A DNA stretch of 64,000 nucleotides, from assembly GCA_951406725.2 (NCBI GenBank), contig OX597814.1, forward strand, positions 183,644,001 through 183,708,000, given 5' to 3'. The number at the start of each line of letters is the position of its first letter. Position 1 is the stretch's first letter. Positions 6,437 to 28,235 of this stretch are shown here, one piece after another. The notes beneath the pieces are model-generated. The model was not told the origin of the DNA. It saw nothing but the letters and a program-made list of their open reading frames with translations, and made no database searches. The DNA comes from Octopus vulgaris. Lineage: Eukaryota. Made by a program: the position numbers and the translations under genes.

Positions 6437-6500
<64 letters not shown>

Positions 6501-6628
6501 GACGGGCTTCTTTCAGTTTCCGTCTACCAAAACCTTGATCGGCCCGACGCTATAGTAGAAGACACTTGCACAAGGTGCCACGTAGTGGGACTGAACCTGG
6601 AACCATGTTGTTGGTTAGCAAGCTACTT

Positions 6629-8607
6629 TTATTCATTAAATTTGCCATGAAGGCAGTACATAGATGTAGCTTCGCAGGCTGGACGTAGACAATGATGGTA
6701 TGAATGATGGTGATGGGAGAGGACGAAAGCGCCCGCCGACTTCCGCTTCCCTAAGACAATGTTCTTTTTTCAAAAAGTCAAAAAGTCACAAAATTTCACA
6801 AAAGTCACAATGAGGCAATGAACCTCTTTCTCAATATGATACAATTTTTTCTTTTTAAAACATTCAAAAATTCAAGTCACCCGGCCGACCAGCGCTCTTG
6901 CTTTATCGAGGCAATCATCCTTTGTCGGGACGCGCCATGCAGGTATATATTGAAAGGAGTCCTCCGGGAAGGAATCCACGATCCTGCACAGATCGCTATC
7001 CCATAGGACCTCCACAGCCACCTGCGAAGGCCACTCAGAGTCCTCCGTGCAGGACCGAAGTCCCTCCCATTGGCCTCTCCCTTCCATTTTACCTATCTCG
7101 TTTTCAAGCGTTCCTTGAAGACCACATATTGATCCTCCGGCAGCACATCCGCCTGAGGAGGCTTGGGAGACGCCGTCTGCGTGTTACAATCCGCCGGCGG
7201 CGTCCCGTTTCTCTTTCTTCTTTTTTCCCCTTTTTTTCCCTGGGCCGCGGGAGGGTGAGGTTCCTGTGTTGCACACAACGGGTCCTCTTTTCTCCCGCAG
7301 CTCCCGGGTCTTTCGGTGGGTCACCATTGTTGCCCATCTTTCTTTTCTTTTTTGAGGATGTAGCAATTTCCTCGTTCTGTTTCTCTCCCTCCATTGGGGG
7401 AGCAGGGAGAGACTCCAACACTAACCGCTCCAGGATCCTACTTTGGTCCCTGGGGCAGTTCTTCTTAATGTGGCCGGTCTCCAGGCACAGGTGACACTTG
7501 GGGGGGGGGGGGCGTCCCTCAAGCATCACCGGATACTTGGACCCGCCCATCCTCAAGAAATCTGTAAAAAACCAGACTTTTGGCTGATTGGGTCCATAGG
7601 GTCAAAACAACTTTCGACCCCACTCCCACCCCAATCAGCCGCAGGAAACATTTTTACATTTAGCAGCTTGGCACTGCTACCACCCAGACCCCGGCGGATA
7701 GAGTCCTTTATCCACTCGGGCTCAACTCCGGGTGGTAGGCCGCAGATCCAAGCCCTCAATAGTTTTTCTCCCATATAGTTTGGGAGAAACAATATTTCTT
7801 TGCCCTCAAGGGGCTGGCTTGCAAAGTCGCAAGCTTCCTTTGGGGAGTCAAATAGCAACCAGATCGTTGCGTATTTCACTCCCCGCAAGATAAATTTAAC
7901 GGCTGGCATGTAGTCCGCCAGCTCGTTTAAAATTGTGGCCTTCGGGAAGACAGCTATGGTGTCGAGCGACTTCGAATAAGTCCTCAACACTACGGTCTTC
8001 CTTTCCAGCTCTTTTAAATATTTTTTGGAGGTGTTAGGTCCCACACAATAAATTCCTTTGCCATTTCGAAACGGAATCCAATTAAAGTTCAAAAGTGTAA
8101 GAAAATAAATAAGATACAAAGAGGGAGAGGGGAAAACACAACAGAAGAGAAGAATTACAATAAAAATAACAGTTCAAAAGAGTTCTTTTTAAAATAAACG
8201 ATAGCTGGAAGAAGAGAGTTCAAATTCAGCAAAGGAATTAATTTTTTTTGGGGGGCCGAAAAGGTACTCCTGGCCAAACGTCCAAAAGAGTCCTTGGTTA
8301 TCCTTGGAACTTCTTGGTAAATCCAACACAAAGGCAATTAATTTTTGAGGAGGGGCTACGCCTCCTCAAAAACACAATTCTCACTGCAAAGTGAGTCTTT
8401 ACGCTCGACCACAGGCAGGAAAAATGTCCGGAGCAGAGTGGAGTCTATTACTCTCCAAAAAATAATAAATACAGAGCAATAAACTTCACTAAGCCCCTAA
8501 AAAAATTCAACAAACGCCTACCTGTAGTCGAGTCTCAAAATTCAATAATTCATGCCGAAAGACATGACATCCTGCAGCAGCCAAAAAACACGTCCGAACA
8601 CGTCGAA
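6629..8607 (-). mobile_element. ORF1-only Tx1/L1-like non-LTR retroelement
   Basis: Perfect 16-bp TSD GGTTAGCAAGCTACTT (6613-6628 and 8608-8623). The 3' end is TGCCTTCATGGCA hairpin + AATGAATAAAA, and the 5' end is TTCGACGTGTTCGGACGTG. It holds a single gag-like ORF with no room for RT or EN. Confidence 0.85.
6872..8064 (-). pseudogene. Frameshifted LINE ORF1 (RRM-like segments + CCHC zinc knuckle + basic low-complexity tail)
   Basis: Track ORFs 7553-8119, 7104-7556, 7093-7278 and 6872-7087 tile one reading. Motifs are IWLLFDSPKEA, WICGLPPGV and CHLCLETGHIKKNC (C-x2-C-x4-H-x4-C). The likely start is ATG at 8064 (MAKEFIVWDL), followed by a shift in an A-run. Confidence 0.75.
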
Positions 8608-9119
8608 GGTTAGCAAGCTACTTACCACACAGCCACTCCTGCGCCTATGTATACAAAGTTAACACTACTCCCATTTAACGGATCGAATGAGTACTTCACT
8701 TTTCCTTCCAAGCTCCTATTCTCTCGATTTTATCTTGTTTTCGATTCTGTTGTTTCTGTTTGCTTCTTGGTTTTTTCTCAATGAACAGCCATAGTTATTT
8801 TTTGTCTGAACGAACGCAGGATGGTATAAGGCACGATATACAAGCATGTCCGATAGTTCTACTAACTGAGCATGAAACTTAGATTAGTTCACTGTTAAAA
8901 ACTGAGTTTATCAAAGGATGCTTATCTTTTCTCTGGATGCAGCAAATTTTCACTGATCCTAGCAATAATGGAGCAAGAATACTCGCACACACAGACACAC
9001 ACAGACACAGACAGACACACACACACACACACACATGAACGCGCATAAACAAACCCGCACTCCCACCCACGCACGCCCACTCCCCCGCAAGGCCCCACGC
9101 ACACATATGTACACATATA

Positions 9120-9189
<70 letters not shown>

Positions 9190-9893
9190 GAGGATAATAT
9201 CGATATTTAAGTATCCATATTATCTAGTGGCCAGCATGGGAAAAATACCGTACAAAGGTAATAATTTTTAACAATTAAAAATGAGGGTGTCTAAGAGACA
9301 CCAACATGCCGAAATAGCAGTCGAAACTCTGACTATAAAAACCACGTTAAGGGTTCGTGTCGCACCATGAGATAAGACAGATAGACAAAATATACAAGCA
9401 AAAATTATTGAATAATTCAAGATCCAGAATTTATGGTTTTGCTTTAAATAAGCTTTACCGTCATCGGTTGAATATATCAAGAGTACATAAATACAGATAT
9501 ATACATGCAGAACAAACGATATACTTACATATACGAACGTCCATACATAAATACATATGCACGTATGCACGCGGCCAGTTAAATTACCCGCCGAATCATC
9601 CCAAAGTACGACACGGTTAAAATAAACACCGCAGTGAAAATAATAACGAATTATATATATTTATATATGAGGATAATATCGATATTTAAGTATCCATATT
9701 ATCTAGTGGCCAGCATGGGAAAAATACCGTACAAAGGTAATATTTTTTAACAATTAAAAATGAGGGTGTCTAAGAGGCACCAACATGCCGAAATAGCAGT
9801 CGAAACTCTGACTATAAAAACCACGTTAAGGGTTCGTGTCGCACCATGAGATAAGACAGATAGACAAAATATACAAGCAAAAATTATTGAATA

Positions 9894-9952
9894 ATTCAAG
9901 ATCCAGGATTTCTGGTTTTGCTTTAAATAAGCTTTACCGTCATCGGTTGAAT
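9894..9952 (-). ncRNA. Type I hammerhead ribozyme motif (copy B)
   Basis: Reverse complement of the 10175-10233 motif. Confidence 0.65.
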
Positions 9953-10174
9953 ATATCAAGAGTACATAAATACAGATATATACGTGCAGAACATACATTC
10001 GTTATTATTTTCACTGCGGTGTTTATTTTAACCGTGTCGTACTTTGGGATGATTCGGCGGGTAATTTAACTGGCCGCGTGCATACGTGCATATGTATTTA
10101 TGTATGGACGTTCGTATATGTAGGTATATCGTTTGTTCTGCATGTATATATCTGTATTTATGTACTCTTGATAT

Positions 10175-10233
10175 ATTCAACCGATGACGGTAAAGCTTAT
10201 TTAAAGCAAAACCAGAAATCCTGGATCTTGAAT
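10175..10233 (+). ncRNA. Type I hammerhead ribozyme motif (copy C), CCGAUGA core
   Basis: Stem I ATTCAA/TTGAAT; core CCGATGA (10181-10187); stem II GGT/ACC plus GCTT/AAGC; GAAA (10215-10218); stem III TCC-T-GGA; cleavage triplet AUC ending at 10227. Confidence 0.7.
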
Positions 10234-10367
10234 TATTCAATAATTTTTGCTTGTATATTTTGTCTATCTGTCTTATCTCATGGTGCGACACGAACCCTTA
10301 ACGTGGTTTTTATAGTCAGAGTTTCGACTGCTATTTCGGCATGTTGGTGTCTCTTAGACACCCTCAT

Positions 10368-10443
<76 letters not shown>

Positions 10444-16184: not shown

Positions 16185-16835
16185 ACTGAACTCAAAGAAC
16201 TCTACACAGCCCAAATGTGACGGTCTGGTGTGCTGTTTGAAAAGCTGCCGTCATTGGTCCTTACTTTTTTAAAGACAATAATGGAAATGCTGGTAGTGTG
16301 AACTCCGAGCGTTGCGTCAAGATGATAAACAACTTCTTTATGCCTGGATTACGACGAAAACGTATGTCTATTCGACGTGTATGGTTTCAGCAGGATGGGG
16401 CGACGGCCTACACAGCCAGGGCATCAGTGGACGCCCTCTCTTCGGTGACCACCCCATTTCCAGGTTTACTGATATTCGTTGGCTTCCTCAGTCCCCTGAT
16501 TTGTCCATGTGTGATTATTGCTTGTGGGGAAACCTCAGGGTTCGTTTGTATGCGCTTAAGCCCCGTACATTGAACGATTTAAAGGAAGCTATTCGCGTGA
16601 AAGTCGAGGAAATCGACAGAGCGATGCCGGAGAGAGTGGAGACCAACTTCCAACAACGCCTTCAGAAATGCATCAATGAAAACGGACACCAGATGATGGA
16701 TGTTGTTCTCCACACTTAACTTTGACAAATGCTAATTCAATACAAACACATTGATGTCAATAAAATTTTGTTTGCAGCTAAAATTAATGATTTTGTGAAA
16801 TTTTCAACAACATCCGTCCTCTCTGCCCCACCCTG
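16185..16835 (+). mobile_element. Tc1/mariner-superfamily transposon 3' half, rosa/DD41D-like
   Basis: Reads HSPNVTVWCAV..VIGPYFF, WFQQDGATAYT, WLPQSPDLSMCDYCLWGNL...RLQKCINENGH, frameshifted. Ends CACCCTG followed by TA at 16836-16837. Confidence 0.85.
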
Positions 16836-22180: not shown

Positions 22181-23500
22181 CAGATGAGGAGTTTGTGCAG
22201 GCCCTTGATGCCAAGCGCGTGAAACTAAACCTACCATCGGCTAATGCCAAAGATCAATGGGAGGAGCAAAACAACTTGCCGCAAAACTTGATGCCTTGAT
22301 AAGGAAAATTACTCTGGAACGCAAACTAGCCACATACGGAGACGTTGTGTATGCAACCTGCAGGGACATCCTTGGAGTAAAAAAGCCAACGGAGAAGAAG
22401 CCACCTCAGAAATCCAGGCGGCAGCGCATGATGGGGCACACTAAGATTCAGAAGAATAACCTACGGAAACAACTAAAGATTGCCTCTGATACTGAGCGGC
22501 AAGGCTTGCATGAACTCTGGCAAGACTTGGATACCAAAGATAGTGCCCATAGCAAAGCGGAAACTGAGTAAAAAAAAGAGAGTAAGCGGAAAAAAAGACG
22601 CATGACCGCTTCTTCAAAGGCCCCTTCCAATTCGTTAGGGCGCTGTTTGAGCAGCCAAAGTCTGGAACACTGACTGTTGATAAAGACGTGCTTGAACACT
22701 ACCTCGAAGAAGCATGCGCACAAACCCAGAAAGATACCCCGCTTAACATCCCTGGCCTAGTAGAACCTGGCAGACTGACAACAGCATTCAACGACAAGCC
22801 ACCCACGTTGAAGGAGATGAGGAAGGTGGTCGAGAAAGCCAGAGCCAAGTCCGCGCCGGGTTCTAACGGAATATCGTACCTTCTGTACAAGAAATGCCCC
22901 CAAAATCCTGGCATGGCTCCACAGAATGTTATGGTCAGCCTGGAAGAACAAGAAGGACAGTGCCCAATGGATGATGGCTGACGGTGTCTACATCTCCAAA
23001 GAACAGAACTTATCATACACCATCAACCAGTTCAGATCCATCTTACTCCTGAACGTCGAAGGGAAGATATTGTTCTCTGTCATGGCTGCCAGACTGACCA
23101 GCTACCTGCTGGAAAGCAGCTATCTGGATGTGTCTGTCCAGAAGGGAGGCATACCAGGAATACCCGACTACCTAGAACACGTCACGATGATTTGGGATGC
23201 AATCCAGAAGGCCAAGGCAGGAAAGAAAGACCTTCACGTCATATGGCTTGACCTTACCAACGTGTATGGATCTGTGCCACAAGAGATGAATCAGATGTCT
23301 CTCCAAGCGTACAACGTGATGCCCTACATCCCAGAAATGTTGAAAAGCTACTTTGTCGATGCGGCTCTCTAAAAAGGAGTACACAACCAGCTGGATGTGC
23401 CATCTCCCCCACCCTTTTCGTGTTGGCAATGGAAGTCCTATTGAGGGCAGCTTCTGGTGGTGCAAAACCGGCTGACCTCGGCAATGGCCACCAGACACAT
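22181..23500 (+). pseudogene. HERO-clade non-LTR retrotransposon reverse-transcriptase fragment
   Basis: Reads KSAPGSNGISYLLYKKCP, QFRSILLLNVEGKILFS, YLDVSVQKGGIPG..LEH, IWLDLTNVYGSVP and GCAISPTLFVLAMEVL, with stops, frameshifts and an internal deletion. Confidence 0.85.
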
Positions 23501-27109: not shown

Positions 27110-28235
27110 TTACCTTAATGTCTCTGCTGAGTATGTCATGTTCATGTCTTTACATGCACCTTCTATGCCTTTTATACTACAGATTACATTTCTGTAGTTA
27201 ATGCCAGGGTTAATCTTACATGTCATGCAGTTATCATTGGTGCATATGGTATTCTCAAAGGGGTATATTCTACATAGCTGTAATGTGATGGAGTTCCCTG
27301 GCTCATTCAACAATCTTAATGTTGAATTTGGTCTCCTTCAGAGCTTTCCTGAATCTACGGGCTAGTTCTCCATGGGCTGTGGTCTCCACAAACATCACTC
27401 TTTGATATTTATTGCTTTTATACCACGTGTTCACCCTGTTTGTTTTGTCACAAGCTCTTTGTATGCTATTCCAGTCTTTGCTTCTATATCTAGGGCAGGC
27501 ATTACTGGTTTCATTGCATACAATGTTATCTAACTTCTTTCTAGCACCCCTGTATACTCGAACCCTATTTTCTGATCATATCCAGAGAACTGCATGCGCT
27601 CTGCGGTATTTTTCTTCACTGCTGAGGGGATGGCGTGTGGTCTTCCCCTCTGTGACCTGGTGGGGAAGAATCTACTGAAGTCATGATCATCTAAATAGTC
27701 ACTGCCGTAGCTTAGTCTAAGTCCCTCCGTGTTGACTTCACGGTACTCTACTTCACTCTCACAGATTATCTCAATGCAATTCTCCTCAGCAAAATCTATG
27801 TCTATAGATAGGTAGAGTGAAATTACATCCACACTAGTCACTACACGACCTATGAGGTCGTTGGAGTGGTTGCAAGTACTGATTTTACTGAGGAGATCCT
27901 CCGTGCTCACACAGATATCTGGGGACATTTCTATGGGAGGTCGTAATACCCGTGAGAAGAAGTAGGACAGTCGGAGATATTTGCTCCAAAAACTGGTCGG
28001 TTTGGTGGCCCCATAACAGGGATTATGTAGGTTTTATGGTCTTTGCGTAACCCCAGTAGAGTGTAGGAACATCATTGTTGGATGCTTGAAAATTGTGTGC
28101 AGCCGGTTTCTTAGGCTGGATTTTTATGCTCCACATTCCCATGTGTGCATTGAGGAGTTTTCTTTATGCTGGAAATCTATATGTTTGGCTGCTTCAGAAG
28201 AGAGCAGTTTGTTTCATTTTGATGTAATGTTTCCA
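27110..28235 (-). pseudogene. Penelope-like element RT / linker / GIY-YIG start, internally deleted
   Basis: Reads LLGLRKDHK, SVDVISLYLSID (PLE RT motif), WYKSNKYQRVMFVETTAHGELARRFRKAL..IKIVE, CTNDNCMTC (C-x4-C-x2-C linker) and TYSAETLR (YxGET.R-like). Confidence 0.8.

Follow-up and report, generated by a model that had tools for sequence, protein, structure and literature searches.

The window analysed here, i.e. the whole stretch of 64,000 nucleotides of Octopus vulgaris DNA, carries on its minus strand an insert of 1,979 bp (8607 to 6629), which is placed within a short interspersed repeat and in the same orientation as this repeat. The insert consists of a 543-bp leader, a 1,193-bp frame (8064-6872, ~397 codons) and a 243-bp tail (Table 1), and no second copy of it lies within the 64-kb window. 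A first-pass annotation had described it as a retroelement of Tx1/L1 type encoding only ORF1, the first of the two LINE open reading frames. Several parts of that description hold, others had to be changed, and both are treated below together with the evidence that bears on them.

Table 1. Features of the insert and of the repeat in which it lies, given in the 5' to 3' direction of the element.
Feature	Positions	Strand	Remarks
Host repeat, 5' part: tRNA-like head with A-box-like motif	8608..8647	minus	From alignment to 5 intact window copies
TSD copy at the element 5' end	8608..8623	minus	16/16 bases the same as 6613-6628
T-rich leader, 543 bp	8065..8607	minus	GACGTG at 8604 and 8594
ORF1-like N-terminal part: one predicted RRM and a possible second RRM	7556..8064	minus	Frame breaks near 8026, 7625 and 7566
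Single CCHC zinc knuckle	7452..7499	minus	Pfam zf-CCHC E 0.0043, 17.5 bits, cut-off 20.8
Basic, proline-rich linker, likely disordered	7100..7451	minus	Frame breaks near 7287 and 7110
Acidic C-terminal segment of ~75 aa, with the stop at 6872-6874	6872..7099	minus	No known family
Tail, 243 bp: two 4-bp stem-loops (not significant), AATAAA at the end	6629..6871	minus	
TSD copy at the element 3' end	6613..6628	minus	Starts with AA
Host repeat, 3' part: B-box-like motif, body, TA microsatellite	6499..6628	minus	From alignment to window copies

The insert and its target site

The perfect 16-bp target site duplication (TSD) that had been annotated was borne out. The sequences flanking the insert, 6613-6628 and 8608-8623, are equal at 16/16 bases and permit no further extension, and such a duplication would arise by chance at ~3e-6, with 30 bases of slack allowed per end. 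Since the five intact host-repeat copies aligned from other parts of the window each contain this 16-mer, or a close variant of it, a single time (5/5), the 1,979-bp stretch is a true insertion with duplication of its target. The TSD with its empty sites and a short A-rich end are the marks of target-primed copying, and the AA at the start of the 3' TSD copy could have paired with this A-rich end to prime the reaction. The earlier reading was thus right about the insertion, but it missed that the target is the head of a SINE and that other copies possibly lie at the same spot.

The host repeat is ~170 bp long, and its ~8 copies make up 2.0% of the window. The insert is located between two motifs of the repeat head that we take, from the box consensus, to be A-box-like and B-box-like. 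Because ARAGORN called no tRNA anywhere in the window, the tRNA origin of this head rests on the box motifs; Rfam named no family at its gathering score between 6400 and 8800. Octopus SINEs are mainly of the tRNA-Core and tRNA-Deu types (PMC8967140). At 570 bp from the insert, the window also contains a young duplication (9173-10371), formed by a direct repeat of ~310-330 bp with 98-99% identity and a spacing of ~480, plus 375 bp repeated in inverted orientation with 99% identity.

At the 5' end of the element, the two GACGTG motifs reported in the first place are present, and a 7-mer would occur twice in 30 bases by chance in 0.8% of simulations. Promoter elements of the RGACGTGY type are located at about 30 bases from the end of the element. 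Here, the second motif, in an exact RGACGTGY context, is found 13 bases from the end, so that this copy would be perhaps slightly short, or else the match would be a product of chance, a single GACGTG within 30 bases having a probability of 0.6%. In PMC2377424, RGACGTGY is given as the conserved promoter element of the Drosophila elements I, Jockey, F, G and Doc, and by virtue of this match the leader would hold an internal promoter. The measured length of the leader is in line with the ~540-bp 5' UTR proposed. Between 8080 and 8356, the leader also shows degenerate direct repeats (26, 19 and 16 bp; 77-88% alike) that lie ~85-108 bp apart and are possibly an old tandem unit.

The tail had been read as a 3' UTR of ~240 bp ending in a hairpin and AATAAAA. 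Its length was right, but the element stops at AATAAA and the A's that come next belong to the TSD, which it directly abuts; a long poly(A) tail is thus absent. As to the hairpin, a 4-bp stem does exist; however, it folds no better than shuffled sequences (z of +1.43, +0.38 and -1.21 for the last 152, 62 and 42 bases, respectively), and it was rejected as a signal because its stability stays within the shuffled range. Searches of metagenome, viral and prokaryote collections recovered no related locus; one match to the tail motif, on a GC-rich, bacterial-looking contig (L001), shares 23 bases only and was attributed to chance.

The frame and its predicted product

The frame runs from the ATG at 8064 to the stop at 6872-6874 with five frame switches (Table 1), as anticipated for the frameshifted ORF of ~400 codons. 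Its 170-aa N-terminal piece was searched against 1.84 billion representatives and gave 14 matches, 12 of which were kept for alignment; P0004 and P0005 were dropped as chance matches to repeat proteins. The closest relative, P0001, is an uncharacterised protein of Octopus sinensis with 70% identity over 132 aa, which keeps a single frame between the N-terminal domain and the zinc knuckle; to cover the same part, the window copy needs three. Weaker named matches of the same piece come from O. vulgaris and O. bimaculoides (two proteins).

The RRM-like domain of the first description is supported by predicted fold, namely that of the relative P0001. Residues 11-100 of this protein are modelled with a pLDDT of 79-94, and their best fold matches are the RRMs of La and nucleolin (Z 9.7-9.1, rmsd 2.4-2.7, 78-83 aligned residues). 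Foldseek gave no match to this fold at E 0.001 or better (best E 0.0013), and the Pfam profile search of the frame did not name an RRM. A possible second RRM appears at low confidence in two models and found no confirmation. The CCHC knuckle, also part of the original claim, falls below the curated Pfam cut-off in the window copy and above it in the relative P0003. Language-model look-alikes of the protein belong to zf-CCHC and ZCCHC3-like clusters (0.89-0.93 overall, 0.89-0.90 for the ZCCHC3-like ones), to be taken as a lead only. ZCCHC3 is linked to the ORF1 of Tx1, a link for which our literature search gave no confirmation. The product is, by these models, predicted to be a LINE ORF1-type protein with an RRM and a CCHC knuckle, i.e. 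a Type I ORF1. In PMC4120745, Type I ORF1s are those with an RRM followed by CCHC, and they are found in I, Jockey, R1, Tad1, plant L1, L2 and CR1; a Type I-like ORF1 is also reported for Tx1 in PMC5203782. The frame has no match to Transposase_22, the family of Type II ORF1p, and presents the CCHC knuckle instead.

The absence of an endonuclease (EN) and a reverse transcriptase (RT) was confirmed within the element: 0/48 stop-to-stop pieces (at least 30 aa, both strands) match the RT or EN families of Pfam, and 1,979 bp leaves no room for either enzyme. No ORF2 remnant was seen when the pieces of the frame were compared with Pfam, nor in the C-terminal segment, which has no match in PDB sequences or in an RT fragment of the window (22586-23369). 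Word-index searches, which are weak on fused ORF1-ORF2 proteins, gave nothing among longer proteins and only the known matches near the length of the query.

Three other stretches of the window deserve mention. The RT fragment at 22586-23369 (plus strand) is a broken non-LTR one (RVT_1, E 0.0009) and cannot be called the partner of the insert, since it bears no similarity to it. A frameshifted stretch at 16241-16716 (plus strand), to which Pfam gave no name, is presumably a Tc1/mariner transposase remnant, judging by its motifs. The third is a 167-aa open stretch at 27533-28033 (minus strand), with no Pfam match and a motif that we assume to be that of Penelope-like reverse transcriptases.

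Copies in public sequencing runs

Part of the element is contained in 20/24 listed public runs, under four organism labels. The maximum in any run is 0.46 of its words, so relatives of the element would be present in these runs and the exact copy absent. Four of them were compared, namely X1, X5 and X8 (DNA or of unidentified kind) and X13 (guessed to be RNA). The unique flank at 8679-8832 is nearly missing in all four, with bins at a depth of 0-12, which indicates that they likely come from other species or from genomes without the locus.

In X1, X5 and X8, which carry three organism labels, all 25 inner bins of the element stand at a depth of at least 1,054, 1,124 and 122, respectively, compared with 28-73, 29-60 and 6-26 for the longest listed contigs. 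Scaled to the host SINE, this corresponds to ~150-230 copies when the mean depth is used and to 650-1,240 when the peak is used, rough estimates that hold to an order of magnitude only, summed contig depth not being a copy number. The mean depth ratio of tail to ORF is 1.10, 0.73 and 0.75 in the same runs, and the leader reaches about a third. Full LINEs undergo 5' truncation, which leaves the tail in excess of the 5' parts. If the tail were shared with a more abundant full LINE subject to 5' truncation, it would thus be expected in large excess, and the depth ratio speaks against such sharing.

The end of the ORF is connected to the tail by one joint in X1 (6770 to 6879, at a depth of 244 and with a short side of 41 letters) and one in X5 (6780 to 6866, at a depth of 420 and with a short side of 25 letters), the letters between the two sides being unread in both. 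Both joints are several times deeper than the longest listed contigs, and contigs also align across 6865 in X1 and X8; the ORF-to-tail junction is therefore not private to the window copy. The contigs listed include none that spans the whole element, and these findings draw on 15 of 109 joints, 12 of 73 indels and 40 of 428 substitutions.

Repeat depth in 25/25 bins, plus the joining of ORF1 to the tail in other copies, sustains the multi-copy family that had been proposed, and the bridging joints and the tail/ORF depth ratio run counter to the case in which all other copies would carry ORF2 before the tail. Since the tail is as deep as the ORF and multi-copy contigs join the end of the ORF to it, we regard the element as a member of a family, not as a one-off deletion. 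Depth, ratio and the two joints indicate, indirectly, that amplification involved the element as a whole, its ORF1-to-tail junction being preserved. It is also conceivable that the 2-kb form was a minority deletion product of a dominant full LINE, copied a few times, with no role for ORF1 in its spread. Only two joints, among those listed, bridge the weakest stretch (6816-6865), at the depth of ~3-8 copies; the loose ends listed (24 of 1,450) all come from the host SINE, different flanks and ORF2-bearing copies being neither seen nor excluded; and the frame of the window copy is dead. Even so, this explanation is unlikely, given that the tail is not deeper than ORF1 in 3/3 DNA runs, that the element has no ORF2 remnant, and that the bridging contigs appear under two organism labels.

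The copies might also descend, as processed retrocopies, from a host gene that had arisen by domestication of a LINE ORF1, in a similar way to ZCCHC3-type genes, instead of representing a selfish element. P0001 is annotated as an O. sinensis gene with three protein accessions, ZCCHC3-like proteins are among the look-alike clusters mentioned above, and the element has a poly(A) signal at its end but lacks a long tail. On the other side, the copies with the entire leader number in the hundreds, the 5' end bears a promoter motif of LINE type, and P0001 itself, which is ~120 aa short and the sole member of its cluster, looks as expected of a diverged copy of the element, all of which makes a host-gene origin highly improbable. 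In X13, a contig of 1,839 letters (record 11) matches only the RRM-to-CCHC part (7506-7757, ~81-84%) and, from this partial match, may represent a diverged sister family or a gene with different ends.

The copy in the window is dead and decayed. Among the 12 of 73 indels listed, frame-compensating ones are found in other copies at 4/5 breaks, and they amount to 0-39% of the depth in the three DNA-type runs and to more in X13; the majority frame of the family is likely open, with the compensating indels in a minority of the DNA-run depth. The differences within the frame, among the 25 listed, are 6 silent and 19 replacement ones, a proportion that reflects neutral decay of the window copy and is not evidence on selection in the master copies. 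At the 10 replacement sites covered by the P0001 alignment, the family letter restores the P0001 residue in 8/10, moves away from it in 0 and does neither in 2, so that the family resembles the conserved protein more than the window copy does, a comparison that is not a dN/dS.

Regarding the target, two X13 contigs, of 263 and 247 letters, match 8376-8625 from end to end and thereby reach 18 bases into the host SINE. One of them has 9 substitutions in total, and the 13/18 match has a chance of 3e-5 to 3e-4. With a length difference of 16 letters and several substitutions between them, the two look more like separate loci than like alleles. In addition, a joint from 7870 to 8614, present in X1 and X5 at single-copy depth, would be explained by a copy with a truncated 5' end very close to this SINE site; its short side has 22 letters, where anything under 30 calls for caution. 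With the window copy, for which the share of the SINE in the window sets a prior of 2%, four junctions coincide at one SINE position, a count taken without a denominator; in PMC4494074, target preference is defined as more than 20% of flanks of one type.

The two X13 contigs reaching the same SINE position from the 5' end of the element would also be explained by a single insertion into the SINE, followed by copying of the SINE-plus-insert as a whole, either by the partner LINE of the SINE or by DNA duplication. We consider this very unlikely, because the joint from 7870 to 8614 is compatible with a copy that was truncated independently near the same site, and because the insert places 2 kb, with 10 runs of at least five T, between the promoter boxes, which would be expected to hinder such copying. 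Returning to independent insertions, it is a serious possibility, short of a favoured one, that the endonuclease taken from the partner has a preference for the head of the host SINE. The more specific reading, that of an octopus ORF1-only half-LINE which prefers one position of the SINE head, splits its promoter boxes and parasitises a target-specific LINE, is doubtful at present.

Relatives and proposed mode of spread

The Tx1/L1 label of the first-pass annotation is more specific than the data allow, as Type I ORF1s are also known from I, Jockey, R1, L2 and CR1, and the 5' motif matches the I/Jockey type. We lean slightly towards a parent in the Tx1/L1 clade, which fits the 16-bp TSD at a T/AA step, the ZCCHC3-like look-alikes and the L1-Tx1 expansion in coleoids (PMC8967140). 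A parent in the I/Jockey clade is less favoured, yet tenable. In the text covered from PMC9115989, the full LINEs given for these octopuses are RTE and Dong only. The HAL1 names in the RepeatMasker file of that work (15 of 38) stand for brief matches of low score to HAL1-2a_MD and HAL1-3A_ME, a number of which lie over simple repeats, and were discarded, as they do not represent an octopus family.

ORF1-only LINEs had been said to be described mainly from mammals, a statement that overlooked HeT-A (fly) and Ag-Sponge (mosquito). In PMC5786205, HeT-A is assigned to the Jockey clade, HAL1 to L1 and Ag-Sponge to CR1; all three are given as non-autonomous LINEs that encode ORF1, and their protein is proposed to multimerise with that of the partner. 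Like the HAL1 elements of mammals, as presented in PMC5753468 and PMC5786205, the octopus element is non-autonomous, LINE-derived and multi-copy, and it codes for ORF1p only. However, HAL1 derives from mammalian L1 and has a Type II ORF1p (coiled coil, RRM, CTD), whereas the octopus element belongs to a mollusc and its ORF1 is predicted to be of Type I. With this ORF1 type and no Transposase_22, it is not HAL1 proper.

HeT-A (Drosophila, Jockey) and Ag-Sponge (mosquito, CR1) share with it the condition of invertebrate ORF1-only LINE derivatives. The likeness extends to the Type I ORF1 of the Jockey lineage and to the RGACGTGY motif of the Drosophila I/Jockey/F/G/Doc promoters (PMC2377424). In contrast, Jockey-lineage ORF1s have three CCHC knuckles and the octopus element has one (PMC4120745), and the latter is interspersed with a TSD, not telomeric; the comparison with HeT-A and Ag-Sponge is one of description, not of sequence. 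Another point of reference is the crocodilian Tx1-Mar with its passenger SINEU-3, which target Mariner with a 16-bp TSD, Xenopus Tx1 being transposon-targeting too (PMC4494074). The octopus element is comparable to this pair in that it is a non-autonomous passenger which lies within a particular repeat family and is flanked by a 16-bp TSD. SINEU-3, however, is short, non-coding and directed to Mariner, whereas the octopus element codes for ORF1 and lies in a SINE head, its possible preference for this target being drawn from four junctions only. The literature covered, judged by titles, abstracts and the passages cited, held no ORF1-only family in cephalopods or molluscs and none with a SINE target; the octopus family is probably an undescribed one of a known kind (HAL1, HeT-A, Ag-Sponge).

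Taken together, it is probable that the window holds a decayed copy of a multi-copy octopus family of ORF1-only (RRM + CCHC) retroposons that likely borrow the endonuclease and RT of a full LINE. Under this model, a master copy would be transcribed from the internal promoter suggested by the RGACGTGY match in the leader. The ORF1 protein would then cover the RNA that encodes it and deliver this RNA to the proteins of the partner, in line with the proposal made for HeT-A, HAL1 and Ag-Sponge. After a nick at the T/AA step of the target, the partner would copy the RNA from its A-rich end and leave the 16-bp duplication; in this step, the duplication and the empty sites are observed, and the enzyme is deduced from them. 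In this way, the family would have spread as a ~2-kb unit to some hundreds of copies, a rough number behind which the depth itself is measured. The window copy would have decayed later without selection, in agreement with its five frame breaks and the 6 silent and 19 replacement differences listed.

An octopus family with hundreds of copies under several organism labels would extend the ORF1-only strategy to molluscs, and it supports the idea that a retained ORF1 helps the passenger RNA to capture the enzyme of its partner. Copies of such a family can be mistaken for host genes, as illustrated by P0001, catalogued as an uncharacterised gene of O. sinensis. If the preference for the SINE head is true, it would point to an undescribed target-specific LINE and to a three-level chain of parasites in these genomes.
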